DNA of 64,000 nucleotides from Escherichia coli (GTDB taxonomy: Bacteria > Pseudomonadota > Gammaproteobacteria > Enterobacterales > Enterobacteriaceae): assembly GCF_013122565.1 (NCBI RefSeq), contig NZ_CP053258.1; one strand, 5' to 3'. The translations under genes and the position numbers were made by a program. The notes beneath the pieces were generated by a model that was not told where the DNA came from, did not search any database, and saw nothing but the letters and a program-made list of their open reading frames with translations. Every line of letters starts with the position of its first letter. Within the stretch, counting starts at the first letter, position 1. Below, piece after piece: positions 12,799 to 31,685 of this stretch.

Positions 12799-15105
12799 TC
12801 AATACAACTCATCAAGTTTTCTCATCGCTTGTTCCCGTATTGCGCGCGTCTTACCGTTAAGCGCCAGCTGCCGAACTAAATCCAGTTCAGGGTTAACAAG
12901 CTCTAACGCCAGCAAAGGATCACGTTTCAGCCTCGCCTTTAATACATCAACTGGAAAACGGGGATTATTCATCGCCACAATCCACCACTCGGGATCAATT
13001 TCTGCCGCCAGTACTGCAGGCGGTGTGTGGCGGTTGTTAAGTGCGCCGAACTTGAAAAATGTGAGATTGCTTTTCGCCAGTGTACTCCACCATATACGAT
13101 CCGGTTGTTTTGCCAGTACATCCAGTTGTGCTAACGCATCGGGGTCTAGTGCATAATAAACACGTAACGCTTCGTTAACCTGCGCACGGGAACTGTTTTC
13201 CTGCCTCAGAAAAAACTTCGCCCAAATATCATTGCGTGGCGTGTTTTGCTGTAATTCCTTGAGAACAACAGCGGGTAAATTATCCCAACTAATTAATGCA
13301 CTCTCTAAAAAGTCCCAGTCGTCCGAACGTATCAGAGAGGTGGCATTTAATAGCATCTGGTCATCAACTTCACCGTAGCTGATAAGCTCAGACAAAATCA
13401 TATCAGCGCTGGTTTCATATGCAGCTGAATCTGCTTTGGGATTATTTTTCCGATGCGATAAAGCACGTTGCCAAATTTTTTGTTTCATTGACGTGCTCAG
13501 ATACTGATTTTTCGCCAGATTACTCCACCCCTCAGGATCGTTGAAACGTGTCAATAACCGTTGTAAAGCAGCGTCAGAGTGAATTACCTGCATATCCCGA
13601 CAGCAAAAGTAGGCAGGGGATTTTTTCTCCATCCTTTTAACAAAATTAAACTGTAAGTTATCTGGCAATGCTAAAAATAACACACGTATTAGATCATCGT
13701 CATTCTCGAATTTTTGGTATAAATATACTGCTATTTTGTCACTCTCTTGTGGCGTCATCCGCAACAATTGACCATGGTGTTTCATCTCTGCCAGCTTTGA
13801 CGCTAAGCTTGTGACAACATCGTTTGATGAATCGTTCGCCAACTGCATTGCCTGATTGTAGGTGAGTTGTCCTCCAGCACCGACCTGACGAATAGAGGAA
13901 TCATCACTGCGGATATAGCCATCAATAATGGATTCGGGCAATAACCACGCATCTTTATAAAGCTCCTGAATGATCATATCCCAATCTCTTTTCGCCAGAG
14001 TCATGACGATATCCAGAGGGAGATTTTCACGTAGCGCAAGATTCAACGGACCGACACCATCAGGTAGATGACTCATTCGCGTCATTATTTCGACAGAGAG
14101 CGGTTCACGGTCGAGCAACCCCAGAACAACAGGCTGGTAACCCAATTGCTGATCGGTCAACTCCAGAATCTCATTGTCAGGCATATATCTCGCCATACTT
14201 TCAATCGTTTGTCCATCATTGCTATTAATAAGTTGTTTGCGTAGGTTAGCTGAAATTCCTTTAAGCCTTGGGAGAGTTCGCATTATGGCAAGATCAAATG
14301 TCGCAATATCTCGTCCTTCAAATGCAGCAACGTTGCCTTCATCCAGCATTTGCAATTCCTGCACTAACTCAGGAGCAGGCTTAGGGCGAAACAGCGCTTC
14401 TTTTTTCATCAGATTACAGACATTCCCTGCCATGCGAATATTGCTTCGCTTAAAAATTTCTTTCAGAGCATCTTCATCATTTATTAGACCCCAATAATAT
14501 GCATCAGGATTTATTATCATCAGCGCTTTTTTGACATTTTCAGTGTCATTTTTGTCACTCGCACGGACCATGAATTCACTATTTGTCGAAGACGCAACAA
14601 CAGGTGCAATTATGTCATTGATAAATATCCCACGCGCATTAATACTCCCCTTAATTGTAGACGGATTATCGTAATATGAGTCGATAAATACCAGTCCACT
14701 TGCATTTATCGAACCGGTAATTAACAGTGGTGAATCCGTAACTATATTCGTTGCCGTCACGTTACCGAGAATAACCCATGGATTAGAAAGAGAGAAAGTG
14801 GAAATATTACCTTTGACTGTCAAATTGCCAAGAACAATCAATTTTTGATTACTCTCTATATTACCGTCTACCACTAAATCGCCACGATGCACTTTCCAGT
14901 CCGATGCAGATAAACCGAAGGGGACAAGATTCACGCTACTGTTGATAGCTTGTTCAACTTGTTGTTTATCTTCAGCGGTAGCCGCAGAAAAAAATGGTTC
15001 AATATCAACTGCATTTGCAACACATCGAAGGTCCGCCTGTACTGGAAGACTCAGCATAAACAGGGGAAGTAAACCTATCCAGCCGCAAATCCTGGCCTTA
15101 AACAT
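12799..15105 (-). CDS. ydbD: large secreted or periplasmic protein YdbD
   Basis: Longest ORF starts at GTG 15111; ATG at 15105 has a GGAG Shine-Dalgarno 5 nt upstream and gives 768 aa as in K-12; N-terminal signal-peptide-like segment. Confidence 0.8.
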   Translation of the reverse strand: MFKARICGWIGLLPLFMLSLPVQADLRCVANAVDIEPFFSAATAEDKQQVEQAINSSVNLVPFGLSASDWKVHRGDLVVDGNIESNQKLIVLGNLTVKGNISTFSLSNPWVILGNVTATNIVTDSPLLITGSINASGLVFIDSYYDNPSTIKGSINARGIFINDIIAPVVASSTNSEFMVRASDKNDTENVKKALMIINPDAYYWGLINDEDALKEIFKRSNIRMAGNVCNLMKKEALFRPKPAPELVQELQMLDEGNVAAFEGRDIATFDLAIMRTLPRLKGISANLRKQLINSNDGQTIESMARYMPDNEILELTDQQLGYQPVVLGLLDREPLSVEIMTRMSHLPDGVGPLNLALRENLPLDIVMTLAKRDWDMIIQELYKDAWLLPESIIDGYIRSDDSSIRQVGAGGQLTYNQAMQLANDSSNDVVTSLASKLAEMKHHGQLLRMTPQESDKIAVYLYQKFENDDDLIRVLFLALPDNLQFNFVKRMEKKSPAYFCCRDMQVIHSDAALQRLLTRFNDPEGWSNLAKNQYLSTSMKQKIWQRALSHRKNNPKADSAAYETSADMILSELISYGEVDDQMLLNATSLIRSDDWDFLESALISWDNLPAVVLKELQQNTPRNDIWAKFFLRQENSSRAQVNEALRVYYALDPDALAQLDVLAKQPDRIWWSTLAKSNLTFFKFGALNNRHTPPAVLAAEIDPEWWIVAMNNPRFPVDVLKARLKRDPLLALELVNPELDLVRQLALNGKTRAIREQAMRKLDELY

Positions 15106-15122
15106 ATGCACTCCATGCCATT

Positions 15123-15159
15123 AAAAAAGAAACAAAAGGGAAATGCATCTTTCCCTTTT
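15123..15159 (-). terminator. intrinsic terminator downstream of ydbC
   Basis: Stem AAAAGGGAAA / TTTCCCTTTT with a 6-nt loop, followed on the minus strand by GUUUCUUUUUU; ends 18 nt upstream of the ydbD ATG. Confidence 0.6.
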
Positions 15160-15168
15160 GTATATTCG

Positions 15169-16029
15169 TTATTCTCGCGAAATACCATCCAACGTAGACA
15201 ACACTTCCTCAGAAAGATGCAATTTTTCAGCAGCCATATTCTCCCGTAAATGCGCAACAGAAGACGTCCCTGGGATCAGCAAAATATTCGGTGAACGTTG
15301 TAACAGCCACGCCAGCGCCACCTGCATTGGTGTTGCACCCAGGCTCGCAGCAACATCGGAAAGCGTGGAGGATTGCAGCGGCGTAAAGCCCCCGAGCGGG
15401 AAGAACGGCACGTAGGCAATGCCATCGCGGGCCAAAGCATCAATCATTGCATCATCCGCACGATGAGCAATGTTGTATTCGTTTTGCACACAGACGATTT
15501 CGGTAATCTTACGCGCCTCTGCAACCTGCGTCGGTGTAACGTTGCTCAGACCAATATGTTTCACCAGGCCTTGTTGTTGCATCTCTGCCAGCACTGTCAG
15601 GCTGGCTTCAATCGAGCCTTCCGCTGGGCCATGACCATCCCCCATCATAATGCGCAAGTTAACCACATCCAGTACGTCCAGCCCGAGATTACGTAGATTA
15701 TCGTGCACCGCTTTTTGCAGCTCTGCCGGAGAAAAGGCAGGCAACCAGGATGCGTCCTCTCCACGCCGCGCACCAATTTTAGTGACAATTGTCAGGTCGT
15801 CAGAGTAAGGATAAAGCGCTTCGCGGATAATCTGATTGGTGACGTGCGGACCATAAAAGTCGCTGGTATCAATGTGATTGACGCCCAATGCCAGCGCCTC
15901 ACGCAGCACGGTAATAGCGACGTGGCGATCTCTTGGGGGGCCAAAAACCCCAGGACCTGCCAGTTGCATCGCGCCATAACCGAGACGGTTAACGGATTTT
16001 GTACCGAGAGTAAATGTATTGCTGCTCAT
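15169..16029 (-). CDS. ydbC: aldo-keto reductase
   Basis: 286-aa ORF with aldo-keto reductase fold sequence; position matches K-12 ydbC. Confidence 0.9.
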   Translation of the reverse strand: MSSNTFTLGTKSVNRLGYGAMQLAGPGVFGPPRDRHVAITVLREALALGVNHIDTSDFYGPHVTNQIIREALYPYSDDLTIVTKIGARRGEDASWLPAFSPAELQKAVHDNLRNLGLDVLDVVNLRIMMGDGHGPAEGSIEASLTVLAEMQQQGLVKHIGLSNVTPTQVAEARKITEIVCVQNEYNIAHRADDAMIDALARDGIAYVPFFPLGGFTPLQSSTLSDVAASLGATPMQVALAWLLQRSPNILLIPGTSSVAHLRENMAAEKLHLSEEVLSTLDGISRE

Positions 16030-16184
16030 CGCACCCTGCCCTGTAATAAAACGGATTAAGAAAAATCAGTATAGAAACGAAAAGAGATAAATAATGCGAA
16101 GGTGTAAACAAGATTGCTTGATGAGTTGCTCTGTTATCCTGAAAGACACCAAAACAAAACGCGTAAAGCGCCGCATCCGGCAAT

Positions 16185-16218
16185 AAAAAAACCGCAACCT
16201 GTATCAGCGTTGCGGTTT
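16185..16218 (-). terminator. intrinsic terminator downstream of ydbA
   Basis: Stem AACCGCAAC / GTTGCGGTT followed on the minus strand by a U-run (plus-strand A-run 16185..16190); a REP-like GCGCCGCATCCGGCA lies alongside. Confidence 0.7.
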
Positions 16219-16237: not shown

Positions 16238-19200
16238 TTAGAACGTTTTCTTGAAGTTCAGCATCACGCCTTTGTCGCTGATGCCGTCCTCTTTCCAGTT
16301 GTACGCATCCAGGTTCAGTGAGCTTTCTTTGCTGCTGTACTTCACGCCGACGCTTGCCAGGCTGTTGATGCCGCCACCCTTCTGACCGTCATCGACGTTA
16401 AAGTGCTGACTGCCTGCGCCTGCCAGGCTTGCCGTGCGCTGGCTCTTCGCGTAGCTCAGATTCGGCCCGCCTTCCAGCGTGGCGCTAGCGCTCCAGCCGT
16501 CTTTACCTGCGTAATCCAGTTTCAACCCGACGATGCTGTCCACCGCCGTTTCGCTGCCACTGTTCATATTCAGGTTAAAGTCTCCGGCATTGCGCTCCTG
16601 ATAGCCACCTTCCAGTGTGTGACGCAGTTTAACACCCGCATATGGCGTAACCTTCAGTCCTTCGCTCGGTTCGAAAGTCTTCGCCCCTTCGCTGCGGAAC
16701 TCCAGGTACTGCTGCTTCACGTCGGTATCAGCCGTTTTGTTTGTGTTGCTAAATGCAATCGAACGGCTGCTGTCAAGGTTGTGAACGTCATAACGCAATG
16801 CGTTATTCCAGTTCATGCCGTTGTCGAAGGACATCTGATGTTTCAGGCCAAAGAACTGGCTGTAGCCGCCGGTTACGCCGTTGTCGCCCGCTTTCTGCGC
16901 ACCATCGCCATCCAGACGCGCAATACCGTATTCCAGGCTCATGCTCTGGCTTTCGCTCAGGTCGATGGTTTTACGCAATGCCAGCATGTCGTACTCGGTA
17001 TTATTACCTAACTCGGCACGCGGATCGCCTTTCGCCACCACGTTGAACGCCAGACCATTGCCCACTTTCGGCGCGGCATCCGCCAGCATACTAAAGCGGT
17101 TGCTTAACACGCGCGCTTCACGGAACACCGTGGTCGCCAGGCTACCGCTGACCTGTTTCAGGGCGCTGTTCAGTTCGGCGGTGGTGCCAACGTTCAGGCT
17201 GGTATACAGCTCGTTGTTGGTGTAACCCGCATCCAGTGCCTTCGCGACGTCATTTACCGAAGCATCGGTTGCGACATCGGTGTAGGCATTTTTGCTCATG
17301 GTAACGTCAACGTTACCGTTGGCATCGGTGCTGCCTTTGGCGTTCCATACGACCGTAGAGGAAACGATGTTGTCCACACCGCTGATGTTTTCGCCTTTGA
17401 ATACATCGTTAACGACAACGGTGGTATCCGCTGTTCCTGCACTAAACCCGGCATTAACACTCACGTTGTCGCCAATCACCAGGTTATTCGCGCTGAGCGT
17501 ACCGGAACTCCCGTCGCTATTGGTACCGATGGTATAGTTGCTCAGCAGTTGCGGCGCATTTGAATCAGCAGGCGGGGTTGGAACATCACCTTGTGACGGC
17601 GTAGTTGATGCGTCTGGTACGGTGATATCCACAGTACCGTTGTGGTCGTTTTGTGTACCCGTTGTTCCAGGAGCATAAATATCGCATCCGGTATCACACA
17701 GCAGGTTAATTTCACCGTTGTTAATGATGGCTTTCGTTTGCCCACCAAACGCCCAGGAATTATCGGCATAGACATTAATCACACCCGTTTGCGTGTTATT
17801 AATTGTTGTTTCCCGACCATTGCCTTTAATACCAATTAAACCTTCGCCATTGGTTCCATCCTGTTGCCCCTGCTCAGTACCCACATTAATGGTGCCACTG
17901 TTCACCAACTGAACAACATAACTGGTTGTGCCGCCACTGATGCCCACCGCATTATCGCCCTGAACATTAATAACGCCAGCGTTAGCAAAGTTATAACCTC
18001 GTCCTAAATCAACCAACGGAGCCGCAGGGTTAATACCATTGATTACCCCTGTTTCTGTGTTCCAGATCCATTTACCTTTACTGTTCGAGCCAGTACTTTC
18101 GGTTTTGATCGCGCTGTAGCCATTTGTAGCCGTAATGGTTCCACGGTTAACCTGAGATACAGAATCCCCGGTTCTGGTTACATGAATAATCGCGTTTTCA
18201 CCGCCCGTTACCGCATTACCACTATTCGTCAGGGTCGCACCCGCTTCGTTGAAGAACAGGAAACTCCCGTTGATGAGTGATTGCCCATCTTCGGTCACCG
18301 TCATTTCACCGGTATTCACTACGTTCTGTTGATAGCTGTTGCCGGTAATTGAACCGCTGAACTCACCTTCGTTAAAGAAGGAAACCGCACCATTCAACGT
18401 AAGGAGATCTGTTGTCATGCTCCCGGTTTCACGGTTATAGATCGTGGTTTTGCTGTTAATACTGTCAACATCCAGGGTCCCACTATTCTCCAACCCTTGA
18501 GTGACACTCAGTTCGCCATTGATGGTCAGACTGGCATCAGGTTGGTTATATAACCAGCCGTTTGCATCAACATTGCCATTAAGCGTTTCATCTCCGTAGT
18601 TTGCCAGGTTATTAACAACGACAAAACCGTCGGTAGTTGTGGTTTTGCTGATGCTCTCCCCGCTACCAGACAACTCGCTAAGAACATCTTTGTCATCCGG
18701 CGTCACCCCCATATGGGAATCACTTTCATCCATTGGATTACCGAAAAGAGTAATTTTTCCGTAGTTGAGAATGGTACCGGTGCTATCTTTATAAAACGCC
18801 TGACCAATATCAGTATTAATATTAATCACACCATCCTGGTCATTAATGGCCAGACCACCTTGAATTGCCCCCATCGCGAACAACTGGTTATCTTGCTGCT
18901 TCGTCACACCCTCATCGGCGGTGAGATTGATCGTTCCCTGGTTGACAACGGTCCCGCCGCTCATCGCCAGCATACCAAAACCTTCGTTATTAACATTGAT
19001 GGTTCCGGTATTTAACCCACTGGCATCGCCATTTCCGATATCGGTTGACCCTACAACAACGCCACCGGACATAAGATAAGGATGGGGTGGTTGCCAGTAG
19101 GATTTACTAATGATATTGCCATCTTCATCAAGTTCGGGAACAAAACCATCGACATTGATTTCCCCGGCATTTGTCGCCGTGCCTTTAGATGCTGCAGCAG

Positions 19201-22200
19201 CATAGTTTCCCGCGCCTTGCAAATTAATGGTGGCGTCAGATTCATTCACTGTGATGCCGTAATCACTGGCCCACAGCCCGTAGTTGACACCGAAATACCA
19301 TTTCAGGGGGGATTCAGACATCCCGCCTGCGTATGCAGGTGTCGTTACAGAGATCAGATTAATAACCCCACCCGACGCATTCGTAACCTGAGAATTCTGG
19401 CCACGAGCACGCATTGTCCCCCCCCTGGAGAATTCCTCACCGCTAGGTTTGACATTAATAATTCCACTATTAGTGATATGTGCACCATTGTTAGCCGTCA
19501 TTAAATCCTGGCTATCCATTGTGTTAATCACACCTTTGTTTTCAACGCTGGACTGACTGCCAATAGCAGAAATAAGCGCACGTTCAAAGAAGAAAAAGTC
19601 GGTTTCCCTGGCTTTACTGGATATATCCGTTACAGCGTTTTCATCAAATATAACTTTTCCACCGTCCGCCACCGAGACCAACGTAAAGGCACCCAATTCC
19701 TGACGGGTATCCATTGTCGAATGACCACTAATGTTAACGGTATTGTCACCAATAACCGATACGCCATCTATAACATGTGCGGCGCTATCACCACTAATAT
19801 TAATACCGCCATCAATATTAACGGTATTCTTCTCGCCAGAAACAATTATGCCACTCACTAAATTTTCCTGGTGTAGCAGCTCCCCTTGTACGGTGATATC
19901 AACATGGCCACTAATATCTACAGTGTTATTTTTACCACTAATCGTTCCACCTGTTAATGCTGTGATTTGTGCATCAGGGTTATCGCCGAGGATGGAATTA
20001 ACATTGATGCTTCCGTCAACGCTAATATGGCTGTCATTACCCGTCAGACTGAAACCTGTAGCACCCGGCGCATTGCCCTCGCTGTCTGGTTGCTGGAATA
20101 CGTTAATATCGCCGCTTAATTGAACCTGTTCACGGTCACCCGCAATGGATACCCCAGTTCCGTACCGTGAAACATCAATTTCGCCCACGTTACCGAAAAC
20201 TTCATCATCACCATCAATCAGAATCCCCACAGAACCGGAATCCGTGACAACAATTTTGCCTTTATTACTTAACTGCGAGTTATTACCGGCAATATCAATA
20301 CCCGTTGCCCCTCCGCTGACGTAGAGGTCACCTTCCTGGCTAATTGTTGCATTGTGACCGGCAACTTTTGTCCCTACTGCATTCGCACCGTCAACCGTCA
20401 TATCCCCGGCGATATTCATCTCATTGCCATCGCCAGTGATGGTTATACCTGTGGCATTTTCACCCAAAATATTAAGATCATAGGTTGCCAGGGTTATACT
20501 ATTGTTGTCGCCGATAATCTCCATGCCAGTCGTATCGTCTTTAACCAGCATTGAGCCAGCAAGAGAAATACTGCTGCTGTCCCCGGTGATTTTTACACCA
20601 GTACCGCTATTTGTTGTGGTGATGTCTCCCACATTGACAAAGGTAGTATTATCACCATTGATTAACACGCCGTAGGGGTTTCCGTCACTGTCCGCCTGAC
20701 CTACATTGATATCACCAATGTTCATAAAGGTTGTTTGATCGCCATCCAGCAATACACCGATGGAAGTATCATCCACCACAGTAACATTACCCTTATTACT
20801 GACGAGAGTACCTTTACCCTCGGCGTCAATACCGTGTGCGCCACCGCTGACGTATAAATCACCCTGTTGCCTTACAATGGCATCTTCGCCGATAATTTTT
20901 GATCCCGTTGAATTTGCACCATCGACGGTCATGTCGCCTTTGATTTCAATGCGGGCATCATCCCCTGTAATCACACTCCCCGTGCCACCATTCGTGATTT
21001 CGACATCACCAACGGTGTTCAACGTAGTACGATCGCCATTGACAATAACGGCCGTACCACCATCGACATCTGTCTCACCATTATTAGTAATGGTGATATC
21101 GTCACCGGTAAGAATACCTACCACCGAACCTTCACCAATCGCGGTAGTTTGACCGTCGTTGTTCAGGGTGATGTCGTTACCGTCAACGTTTATCACAACG
21201 CCGCCATTCAGCGCGATGTTGCCGCCATGGTCGGTAATAGTGGCATCGTTAATATGGAAATGTTCGCCAGTTGTACCGTCTGCGGTGGTGAGTGACTCTA
21301 TGATTATTTCGATTTTTCCCGCTTCGTCATAGCGCCAGGTGGAGGTTCCGCTCGGATTGACGCCATTGAACGAAGCAGTGTTAGCCGCCTCGTCGACTAA
21401 CCAATCCTTTACGATTGTGGTAGTGCCGCCAGGTCCGGTAAGCGTATAGCTGCCATCGTCATTTTTGGTGTAGGTAAAGGTGGTATCACGTAATTTTAGG
21501 GTCTTCGCGTCCTGATCCCAGGTGACATCGTTTTTATAGACCACTGGATCGTGTTTAACTGGCGTGTCATCGCCACCGTCATCCGGGGTGTCATCGCCGC
21601 CATCATCTGGCGGGACGGGGGTGTCGCCGCCATCATCCGGCGGGACTGGTGTGTCGCCGCCATCATCCGGCGGGACTGGTGTATCACCGCCATCATCCGG
21701 CGGGACTGGTGTGTCGCCGCCATCATCCGGCGGGACTGGTGTGTCACCGCCATCATCCGGCGGGACAGGTGTATCACTGCCATCGTCTGGCGGGACTGGC
21801 GTGTCGCCGCCATCATCCGGCGGGATGGGTGTATCACCGCCATCATCCGGCGGGACGGGTGTATCACCGCCATCATCCGGCGGGACTGGCGTGTCGCCGC
21901 CATCATCCGGCGGGACGGGTGTATCACCACCATCATCCGGCGGGACTGGCGTGTCGCCGCCATCATCCGGCACCGGAGACGAATCGTCATGATGATTATT
22001 ATTATCGTGGAGTGCATATACTGCGACACCTGTGACTGCCGCTGCCAGCCCCACTGCAGCCCAGGGTAATAACTCATTATCTTCAACTGATTTACACTCT
22101 GCCGGCAGCTTTTCTAGCTGTTCTTTACTTAGTGATTTAATATTGGCCGGGCAGCTAATCTTGCTGGATTTACGAGATTCATCCGATGTTTCCGCTATCG

Positions 22201-22273
22201 ACGTATCTGCCGCCCATGTCTGGCTGCTTAACGCCATTGCAACACAGACACTGAGCAATTTTTTCCTTTGCAT
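16238..22273 (-). CDS. ydbA: autotransporter adhesin-like protein, intact 2011-aa form
   Basis: Uninterrupted 2011-codon ORF with signal peptide, N-terminal PDDGGDTPVP tandem repeats, long Gly/Thr/Asn-rich passenger region and C-terminal beta-barrel-like domain ending in F. The K-12 copy is split by IS elements (from memory). Confidence 0.85.
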   Translation of the reverse strand: MQRKKLLSVCVAMALSSQTWAADTSIAETSDESRKSSKISCPANIKSLSKEQLEKLPAECKSVEDNELLPWAAVGLAAAVTGVAVYALHDNNNHHDDSSPVPDDGGDTPVPPDDGGDTPVPPDDGGDTPVPPDDGGDTPVPPDDGGDTPIPPDDGGDTPVPPDDGSDTPVPPDDGGDTPVPPDDGGDTPVPPDDGGDTPVPPDDGGDTPVPPDDGGDTPVPPDDGGDDTPDDGGDDTPVKHDPVVYKNDVTWDQDAKTLKLRDTTFTYTKNDDGSYTLTGPGGTTTIVKDWLVDEAANTASFNGVNPSGTSTWRYDEAGKIEIIIESLTTADGTTGEHFHINDATITDHGGNIALNGGVVINVDGNDITLNNDGQTTAIGEGSVVGILTGDDITITNNGETDVDGGTAVIVNGDRTTLNTVGDVEITNGGTGSVITGDDARIEIKGDMTVDGANSTGSKIIGEDAIVRQQGDLYVSGGAHGIDAEGKGTLVSNKGNVTVVDDTSIGVLLDGDQTTFMNIGDINVGQADSDGNPYGVLINGDNTTFVNVGDITTTNSGTGVKITGDSSSISLAGSMLVKDDTTGMEIIGDNNSITLATYDLNILGENATGITITGDGNEMNIAGDMTVDGANAVGTKVAGHNATISQEGDLYVSGGATGIDIAGNNSQLSNKGKIVVTDSGSVGILIDGDDEVFGNVGEIDVSRYGTGVSIAGDREQVQLSGDINVFQQPDSEGNAPGATGFSLTGNDSHISVDGSINVNSILGDNPDAQITALTGGTISGKNNTVDISGHVDITVQGELLHQENLVSGIIVSGEKNTVNIDGGINISGDSAAHVIDGVSVIGDNTVNISGHSTMDTRQELGAFTLVSVADGGKVIFDENAVTDISSKARETDFFFFERALISAIGSQSSVENKGVINTMDSQDLMTANNGAHITNSGIINVKPSGEEFSRGGTMRARGQNSQVTNASGGVINLISVTTPAYAGGMSESPLKWYFGVNYGLWASDYGITVNESDATINLQGAGNYAAAASKGTATNAGEINVDGFVPELDEDGNIISKSYWQPPHPYLMSGGVVVGSTDIGNGDASGLNTGTINVNNEGFGMLAMSGGTVVNQGTINLTADEGVTKQQDNQLFAMGAIQGGLAINDQDGVININTDIGQAFYKDSTGTILNYGKITLFGNPMDESDSHMGVTPDDKDVLSELSGSGESISKTTTTDGFVVVNNLANYGDETLNGNVDANGWLYNQPDASLTINGELSVTQGLENSGTLDVDSINSKTTIYNRETGSMTTDLLTLNGAVSFFNEGEFSGSITGNSYQQNVVNTGEMTVTEDGQSLINGSFLFFNEAGATLTNSGNAVTGGENAIIHVTRTGDSVSQVNRGTITATNGYSAIKTESTGSNSKGKWIWNTETGVINGINPAAPLVDLGRGYNFANAGVINVQGDNAVGISGGTTSYVVQLVNSGTINVGTEQGQQDGTNGEGLIGIKGNGRETTINNTQTGVINVYADNSWAFGGQTKAIINNGEINLLCDTGCDIYAPGTTGTQNDHNGTVDITVPDASTTPSQGDVPTPPADSNAPQLLSNYTIGTNSDGSSGTLSANNLVIGDNVSVNAGFSAGTADTTVVVNDVFKGENISGVDNIVSSTVVWNAKGSTDANGNVDVTMSKNAYTDVATDASVNDVAKALDAGYTNNELYTSLNVGTTAELNSALKQVSGSLATTVFREARVLSNRFSMLADAAPKVGNGLAFNVVAKGDPRAELGNNTEYDMLALRKTIDLSESQSMSLEYGIARLDGDGAQKAGDNGVTGGYSQFFGLKHQMSFDNGMNWNNALRYDVHNLDSSRSIAFSNTNKTADTDVKQQYLEFRSEGAKTFEPSEGLKVTPYAGVKLRHTLEGGYQERNAGDFNLNMNSGSETAVDSIVGLKLDYAGKDGWSASATLEGGPNLSYAKSQRTASLAGAGSQHFNVDDGQKGGGINSLASVGVKYSSKESSLNLDAYNWKEDGISDKGVMLNFKKTF
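21571..21972 (-). repeat. tandem array of about 13 30-bp repeats inside ydbA (encoding PDDGGDTPVP units)
   Basis: Twelve near-identical head-to-tail 30-bp units (CATCATCCGGCGGGACTGGTGTGTCGCCGC on the plus strand) from 21601 to 21960, plus degenerate flanking units; in frame with ydbA. Confidence 0.95.
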
Positions 22274-31646: not shown

Positions 31647-31685
31647 AAAAAAAAGCCCGGACGACTGTTCGGGCTTGTCTTTTTA
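31647..31685. terminator. bidirectional intrinsic terminator shared by pfo and micC
   Basis: A8 - GCCCGGACGACTGTTCGGGC - TTGTCTTTTT: a GC-rich hairpin flanked by an A-run and a T-rich run. Confidence 0.8.

Follow-up and report, generated by a model that had tools for sequence, protein, structure and literature searches.

A probable intrinsic terminator of pdxI lies directly upstream of ydbD in Escherichia coli

We have analyzed the junction between pdxI (formerly ydbC) and ydbD in a 64-kb stretch of the Escherichia coli genome (contig NZ_CP053258.1; the whole 64,000 nucleotides are referred to here as the window, and all positions are those of the window). The two genes are co-directional on the minus strand and 63 nt apart, and the interval between them harbors a hairpin with a U-tract. 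Our results suggest that this element is most probably an ordinary Rho-independent terminator of pdxI, a monocistronic and RpoS-dependent gene, and that transcription leaking through the terminator feeds ydbD. This simplest reading was missing from an earlier note on this DNA, which had raised attenuation-like control or a promoter inside ydbC; the site is best read as the pdxI terminator at the left edge of a ydbD insertion.

The gene names pdxI (pyridoxine 4-dehydrogenase / pyridoxal reductase) and ydbD are those annotated in matching E. coli genomes, and PdxI displays a match to PF00248 with an E value of 1.9e-50 (Pfam). On the minus strand, the 5' arm (15161-15150), the loop GAUGCA (15149-15144) and the 3' arm (15143-15132) of the hairpin form a perfect stem of 12 Watson-Crick pairs, 4 of them G-C, closed by a 6-nt loop (terminator scan). 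The pdxI stop codon lies 7 nt from the base of the hairpin and 13 nt from its G-C core. Downstream of the hairpin, AATGGCAT is found between the U-tract and the GGAG sequence, which begins 8 nt past the U-tract, and TGCAT is found between GGAG and the ydbD ATG, the distance from the end of the U-tract to this ATG being about 17-18 nt. An A-rich stretch 5' of the hairpin mirrors the U-tract; read on the plus strand, the tail of the hairpin (ATATTCGTTA) is poor. The positions of these and the other features discussed are collected in Table 1.

Table 1. Features of the pdxI-ydbD region, in window coordinates
Feature	Positions	Strand	Description	Basis
pdxI (ydbC) coding sequence	15169..16029	minus	286-aa aldo/keto reductase; TAA stop at 15171-15169	open reading frame list
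Spacer, pdxI stop to hairpin base	15162..15168	minus	CGAATAT, 7 nt, AT-rich	sequence
Terminator hairpin	15132..15161	minus	ACAAAAGGGAAA / GATGCA / TTTCCCTTTTGT	fold, terminator scan, repeat search
U-tract	15123..15131	minus	UUCUUUUUU (DNA TTCTTTTTT), 8/9 U; expected RNA release site	sequence
ydbD Shine-Dalgarno sequence	15111..15114	minus	GGAG, within the near-invariant TTTTTAAYGGCATGGAGYGCATATG	sequence and relatives
ydbD coding sequence	12799..15105	minus	768 aa; start ATG at 15105-15103	open reading frame list; K-12 annotation has the same start
Candidate antiterminator arm	15212..15224	minus	inside pdxI codons L-H-L-S	inverted-repeat search
Left junction of ydbD-containing insertion	15176..15177	minus		alignment with ydbD-less loci
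Putative -10 element of pdxI promoter	16068..16075	minus	TCTATACT, about 40 nt upstream of pdxI ATG	sequence

The gene identities, the hairpin, the U-tract, the GGAG sequence and the 18-nt distance to the ATG had been recognized correctly in the earlier note on the minus-strand sequence. The 10-bp stem that it placed at 15134..15159 is real and corresponds to the inner part of the 12-bp stem at 15132..15161. The longest ydbD frame had also been said there to overlap the U-tract, which is incorrect: a TAA at 15123-15121 closes this frame, and this stop codon has just the final T of the tract in common with it. The earliest possible start within the frame is a GTG at 15111. As this GTG is replaced by GCG in Escherichia albertii, the ATG at 15105 can be regarded as the conserved start of ydbD.

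The hairpin exceeds what would be expected by chance. Alone, it is calculated to fold with -15.2 to -16.2 kcal/mol. The 48-nt segment that contains it reaches -16.2 kcal/mol versus a mean of -5.5 for its shuffled versions (z = -5.4), none of the 200 shuffles being as stable, and the pairs of the stem have probabilities of 0.92-1.0 when folded in a 178-nt context. Both strands of the window were searched for stems that comprise 12 or more bp, including 3 or more G-C pairs, and that have 6 or more T among the 9 nt that follow. Exactly one site, the pdxI hairpin, was identified, with 0.03 per window expected from 100 dinucleotide shuffles. A looser cutoff of at least 9 bp resulted in two sites versus 0.7 expected; the sole additional one lies at 31653-31676 on the plus strand and consists of AAGCCCGGACGACTGTTCGGGCTT followed by GTCTTTTTA. 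The pdxI element displays the sequence-level properties of an intrinsic terminator, namely, a stable G-C-containing stem-loop, an adjacent U-tract, a stop codon just upstream on the same strand, and a structure that is kept in relatives despite changes in sequence. A dispersed repeat, such as a repetitive extragenic palindromic (REP) sequence or bacterial interspersed mosaic element (BIME), was also considered and rejected because the 76-nt junction is single copy, being found at a median of 1 place per genome in 4,414 genomes.

Most of 5,219 complete genomes match the 1.1 kb around the junction with 95-99% identity. Of the 4,414 genomes that carry the 76-nt junction itself, 3,436 match it with an identity of 99% or more, and it is more uniform than the flanking coding sequence. 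In K-12, the G at 15133 is absent due to a 1-nt deletion, and the outer C-G and A-U pairs are gone. The K-12 allele therefore consists of a 10-bp stem of -11.5 kcal/mol that is followed directly by UUUCUUUUUU. YdbD homologs were detected in the genus Escherichia only, namely, in E. coli, E. albertii and Escherichia whittamii; a scan of genome contigs for YdbD gave one locus, from E. whittamii, and the remaining lineages were obtained through protein look-ups. In every ydbD-bearing lineage found, ydbD directly follows pdxI, and in all three species the pair has stayed together, including at loci whose neighboring genes are not the same. The intergenic sequence is present in three or four independent versions. 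That of E. whittamii, CAGGGAAGCAUUUUGUUUCCCUUUUUAAU, forms a 9-bp stem of -11.4 kcal/mol, and that of E. albertii, GAAAGGGAGGCUCUUAGUUUCCCUUUUUAAC, a 12-bp stem of -14.1 kcal/mol. A GGGA/UCCC core and a U-run (U5 in E. whittamii and E. albertii) are present in all versions. The upper stem varies by insertions, deletions and substitutions, including an A-U pair versus a U-A pair between E. whittamii and E. albertii, and the E. coli version is longer by 8-9 nt.

RNAalifold applied to a MAFFT alignment of these 3-4 independent variants detected no compensatory pair, and as the variants are so few, covariation statistics are weak. In the same alignment, the E. coli U-tract (GTTTCTTTTTT) is placed against the 3' arm and U-run of the sister species (GTTTCCCTTTTT), which suggests that the terminator seems to have been remodeled rather than plainly conserved. 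Unlike the hairpin, the sequence TTTTTAAYGGCATGGAGYGCATATG, which comprises the end of the U-run, the Shine-Dalgarno sequence and the start codon, hardly varies.

Loss of ydbD leaves the hairpin in place behind pdxI. In B2-type strains such as Nissle (EcN), ydbD carries an internal deletion; its first 30 nt are unchanged, as is the hairpin, and ynbA lies about 200 nt past the retained ydbD start. Several junction matches of 100% identity carry only a pdxI annotation. As further observations on these strains, the deletion in EcN (locus L002, 4597-4700) removes about 2.2 kb of ydbD and leaves the terminator, the Shine-Dalgarno sequence, the ATG and a remnant open reading frame of about 32 codons ahead of ynbA, and the 5' region of ydbD is absent from roughly a quarter of pdxI-bearing genomes.

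A comparison with loci that lack ydbD provides a probable explanation for the position of the terminator. In Escherichia marmotae, Citrobacter koseri and a minority of E. coli strains (e.g., SCU-485), pdxI is directly convergent with azoR, with a gap of 40-60 nt that holds a different, shared hairpin. Homology with these loci stops after ATTTCGC (15183-15177), 5 nt short of the pdxI stop codon, and the C terminus of PdxI reads ...ISRE* where ydbD is present and ...ISQKAG* or ...IAKKAS* elsewhere. The GC content is 52-54% for pdxI and 38-48% for ydbD. By these sequence comparisons, ydbD is a low-GC, Escherichia-restricted insert, together with ynbABCD in E. coli. The insertion would have removed the final few codons of pdxI along with the ancestral hairpin that served both pdxI and the convergent azoR. 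The terminator of the window is located within the insert, 15 nt from its left end, and it may have been brought by the insert or may have evolved later. It would be so near the start of ydbD because ydbD was inserted at the end of pdxI, and the tight spacing between terminator and ATG is thus best seen as an evolutionary junction, not an evolved regulatory design. The ancestral pdxI/azoR bidirectional terminator, as found in E. marmotae and SCU-485, resembles the element in the window in that it ends pdxI and that its hairpin is flanked by A- and T-rich runs. It differs in sequence and in that its T-run faces azoR, whereas the hairpin in the window serves pdxI only.

The sequence upstream of pdxI is consistent with the proposed mode of expression. 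The putative -10 element TCTATACT corresponds to a textbook sigma-S-type extended -10. This would fit the approximately 100-fold RpoS dependence reported for ydbC in the O157:H7 strain EDL933 (log2 values of 8.9 versus 2.2), where ydbC is given as a single gene (PMC2907692). The supplementary list of regulated genes from this array study does not include ydbD, and ydbD was listed alone, with a 3.9-fold induction, when sigma-E was overexpressed (PMC2731931); both speak for an expression of ydbD that is separate from that of ydbC. The ydbC promoter motif of Ishihama, TTAACA-17-TCGAAT, does not occur in the window. YdbD has been quantified in K-12 at below 1 part per million, about 6 copies per cell (PMC5053530). 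Fitness and methylglyoxal phenotypes have been reported for ydbD mutants. Taken together, the expression data fit an efficient terminator between pdxI and ydbD and very low transcription of ydbD.

Polymerase starting at the sigma-S-type pdxI promoter would transcribe the 12-bp hairpin and the U-run and would mostly release its RNA at about 15131-15123, equivalent to about 1,475,120-1,475,126 in K-12. We infer from the sequence that termination takes place in vivo at the U-tract, and leak-through is the presumed source of ydbD mRNA. The hairpin would insulate ydbD from the strong stationary-phase transcription of pdxI, and ydbD would be reached only by polymerases that leak past the terminator after initiating at the pdxI promoter or at weak start sites within pdxI. 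As no recognizable promoter is present between the terminator and the ATG, ydbD would have to depend on such leaked polymerases. Leak-through is also preferred because transcripts starting upstream of 15161 must cross the terminator, and it fits the very low level of YdbD. In RNA that extends past the terminator, 27 nt separate the end of the hairpin from the ATG, which would leave the Shine-Dalgarno sequence free.

Several observations weigh against this reading or limit its support. The absence of ydbD from the RpoS list of EDL933 is negative evidence, and it comes from a single array study. In addition to its induction by sigma-E overexpression, ydbD is among the targets of YciT identified by chromatin immunoprecipitation with exonuclease digestion (ChIP-exo) (PMC8464067). 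The sigma-E response and the YciT target hint at a regulation of ydbD of its own, beyond plain leak-through. The Term-seq tables of curated 3' ends in Adams et al. 2021 list neither ydbC nor ydbD, and no match to ydbC, ydbD or pdxI was obtained in the supplementary data on TERMITe, SMRT-Cappable-seq and Cappable-seq. The silence of these end-mapping data on ydbC and ydbD is probably due to low expression under the conditions used. OperonSEQer likewise gave no match to ydbC, ydbD or pdxI. The amount of read-through is a further point. A translating ribosome has been reported to be able to repress termination when the terminator lies a few bp past the gene (PMC4824070). As the pdxI stop codon is close to the hairpin, read-through may be larger than assumed because of the trailing ribosome.

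Other explanations for the junction were weighed against termination with leak-through. One of them, a promoter for ydbD embedded in the terminator itself, is rather unlikely. In this case, a weak or activator-dependent promoter would use the spacer after the pdxI stop codon as its -10 element and start at or inside the 5' arm; the ydbD RNA would begin with a truncated or 5'-terminal hairpin, would partly escape termination, and the stem-loop would stabilize the mRNA. The earlier note had argued that ydbD transcription must read through the hairpin or start from a promoter inside ydbC, a logic that is essentially sound; a start at or inside the 5' arm, which it had dismissed, would be a third route. 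In favor of this route, each of the three lineages has a -10-like, AT-rich hexamer with its end 6-7 nt ahead of the hairpin GGG (E. coli, GAATAT or TATACA; E. whittamii, TAATTT; E. albertii, TAATAT), and the separate regulation of ydbD described above, including its absence as a partner of ydbC in the RpoS regulon, would be accounted for. However, neither a -35 element nor an extended -10 TG accompanies the hexamer, the best combined matches reach 6-8 of 12 positions, AT-rich sequence after stop codons is common, and a transcript starting at the GGG would still yield a 6-bp GGGAAA/UUUCCC hairpin with a U-run.

The consensus scan gave no match at this position either, and over the approximately 400 nt that precede the ydbD ATG none of the sigma-70-like sites reached 9 of 12 matches, although consensus scans can miss weak or activator-dependent promoters. 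For the promoter inside ydbC proposed in the earlier note, the 3' part of pdxI contained no site at this threshold; the only match within pdxI is in its 5' part, at a distance of about 670 nt from the ydbD ATG. The best sigma-70 candidates, TTTACG-17-AAAAAT and TTGTCT-19-GAGAAT, score 8 of 12 and neither is conserved in the sister species. A candidate -10 within the U-tract, TTTAAT, was set aside; it reads TTTAAC in E. albertii and TTTATT, which is still -10-like, in the whittamii-like contig L012. The region upstream of ydbD yielded no sigma-E-like site, the candidate TCTGA (15213-15209) being rejected for its lack of a -35 element and its change to TCTGC in the sister species. The consensus spacing for sigma-54 is GG-N10-GC. 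The sigma-54-like motif TGGCATGGAGTGCAT (TGGCAT-N4-TGCAT) has the spacing GG-N8-GC and was rejected as mis-spaced.

The co-directional arrangement, the distance of 63 nt, the lack of an identified ydbD promoter, and the maintenance of the pair in E. coli, E. whittamii and E. albertii despite differing flanks would also be expected if pdxI and ydbD formed one operon in which the hairpin, as a designed partial terminator, fixed a low ratio of ydbD to pdxI. Termination is described as stochastic and as generally giving both terminated and read-through isoforms (PMC8783025). We nevertheless consider such a designed element very improbable, since ydbD is not listed along with ydbC as RpoS dependent despite the 100-fold change of the latter, neither the GC content nor the origin of the two genes is the same, ydbD is often deleted with pdxI and the hairpin being retained, and there is no known functional link between PdxI and YdbD. 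Internal or partial terminators between co-directional genes are exemplified by T1 in rpsU-dnaG-rpoD and by the rplL-rpoB attenuator. The pdxI-ydbD site resembles these in having genes on the same strand and a distal gene without a visible promoter whose expression is expected to amount to a small fraction of that of the proximal gene, but here the two genes are of different origin and have not been reported to be co-regulated, and the site looks like an insertion junction rather than an evolved operon. That the palindrome has no role in RNA at all, being a product of chance or a site for a DNA-binding protein such as YciT, is extremely improbable. The loop does hold the palindrome ATGCAT, GCAT occurs three times in 15147-15106, and ydbD is in the YciT target list. 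Against this stand the chance expectation of 0.03 per window, the presence of the U-run on the correct strand and directly after the stem, and the fact that the sister species retain the structure and not the sequence.

The attenuation-like control raised in the earlier note was not borne out. Only 7 noncoding nt precede the hairpin, no Rfam family was identified, and the sole candidate for an antiterminator is specific to E. coli and much weaker than the terminator. This candidate derives from a second inverted repeat, in which 15224-15212 is complementary at 12 of 13 positions (92%) to 15153-15141, a segment comprising the upper 5' arm, the loop and the first 3 nt of the 3' arm. While transcription has yet to reach the 3' arm, the repeat is part of the minimum-free-energy structure with a gain of -4.6 to -6.7 kcal/mol, and complementarity of at least 11 bp was obtained in 0.12% of shuffled upstream sequences (P about 0.001), in a test that was post hoc. 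One can therefore envisage a regulated attenuator in which the terminator competes with the 15224-15212/15153-15141 helix; translation of pdxI would hide the upstream arm and lead to termination, whereas untranslated or uncoupled transcripts would form the alternative helix and read through. The 13-nt repeat and its rarity in shuffles speak for this, as does the stop codon, which is near enough to the hairpin for the position of the ribosome to count (PMC4824070).

Nonetheless, regulated attenuation appears quite improbable. No counterpart of the second repeat, and no equivalent partner for the 5' arm, is found in E. whittamii or E. albertii, so that the antiterminator is not conserved alongside the terminator. 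The terminator is far stabler (-15.2 kcal/mol; pair probabilities of 0.92-1.0 at equilibrium), the candidate antiterminator helix being weaker by about 9-10 kcal/mol. No sensor in the form of an aptamer, a leader peptide, or a leader that binds a protein or tRNA was recognized, and the Rfam search returned nothing at threshold, the only hit being the patAB leader at a chance-level 25.9 bits versus a gathering score of 92. In addition, the second repeat lies in translated sequence, and the complementarity is perhaps a by-product of the origin of the loop insertion specific to E. coli. In the absence of a convincing ydbD promoter, a sensor, or a conserved antiterminator, attenuation-like control is unsupported. 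As a separate observation, a G-to-T change at 15220 in EcN weakens the second repeat. Two further structures were examined and rejected. One is a weak, G-U-rich long-range helix, 15178-15185/15108-15115 on the minus strand in a 91-nt fold, which brackets the terminator and covers GGAG; the changes in the sister species are not compensatory. The other, a 4-bp mini-hairpin around GGAG, was dropped because it also lacks compensatory changes.

Widespread 3' ends in 5' untranslated regions (UTRs) have been described by Adams et al. 2021 (PMC7815308). Like 5'-UTR attenuators and riboswitches, the pdxI-ydbD site places a terminator immediately upstream of the ribosome-binding site of an open reading frame; unlike them, it has no dedicated promoter that could be found, no sensor, no conserved antiterminator, and no entry in the 3'-end tables of that study. 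It is hardly probable, although conceivable, that the E. coli pdxI terminator has acquired a translation-sensing antiterminator through which untranslated RNAs, arising from internal starts or translation stress, read into ydbD and ynbABCD. If this were true, it would represent an attenuator in which the C-terminal end of a complete enzyme gene takes the part of the "leader peptide", and the site gains interest only if this E. coli-specific antiterminator-like pairing works.

Returning to termination with leak-through, the element is comparable to canonical intrinsic terminators such as lambda tR2 and many E. coli terminators of single genes that predictors of hairpins with U-tracts have identified. 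It shares with them a stem containing G-C pairs, a short loop, a U-run that follows directly, and a stop codon a few nt upstream. It differs from them in that its stem is rich in A and U (4 of 12 pairs are G-C), that the Shine-Dalgarno sequence of the next gene lies 8 nt past the U-tract, and that no mapped 3' end was found for it. It would be a new, unmapped example of a well-known kind of terminator, with a modestly interesting evolutionary context. If the reading is true, the outcome is a routine annotation: pdxI would form an RpoS-dependent unit that is complete in itself, terminator included, and ydbD would be a gene with no recognizable promoter that is expressed through leak-through. 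The locus would then be a clean, small example of a horizontally acquired gene that landed right behind a terminator and was insulated from its neighbor, and of a terminator remodeled through insertions, deletions and turnover of its arms while keeping its function. For studies on ydbD, constructs would need the 3' end of pdxI and the hairpin for native expression.

Additional observations concern rare variants of the junction. Two rare predicted proteins, P0031 and P0033, combine an aldo/keto-reductase domain with YdbD sequence, and P0031 also includes DUF2773. Their sequences suggest deletions that fused pdxI to ydbD and removed the terminator in a few isolates. Loci L008 and L009 (2378-2546) harbor the exact E. 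coli-type junction and encode an 89%-identical YdbD cluster named E. albertii by the source (L009 is an NCBI assembly), unlike the E. albertii loci L006 and L007, which have a hairpin of their own. As judged from these sequences, this suggests interspecies recombination at the locus.

YdbD itself is annotated as a "DUF2773 domain-containing bactofilin" or polymer-forming cytoskeletal protein, and Pfam recognizes only the C-terminal 81-aa DUF2773. Its N terminus, MFKARICGWIGLLPLFMLSLPVQA|D, resembles by eye a cleavable signal peptide. No terminator-like hairpin was found between ydbD and ynbA. On the other side of the region, the sequence upstream of TCTATACT contains the terminator of ydbA and a REP-like element; the former consists of ACCGCAAC...GTTGCGGT followed by T8, the latter of GCCGGATGCGGCG, and both lie within 16150-16215. 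The autotransporter gene ydbA (16238-22273, minus strand) is intact in the window and encodes 2011 aa, whereas the K-12 copy is a pseudogene split by the insertion sequences IS2 and IS30.

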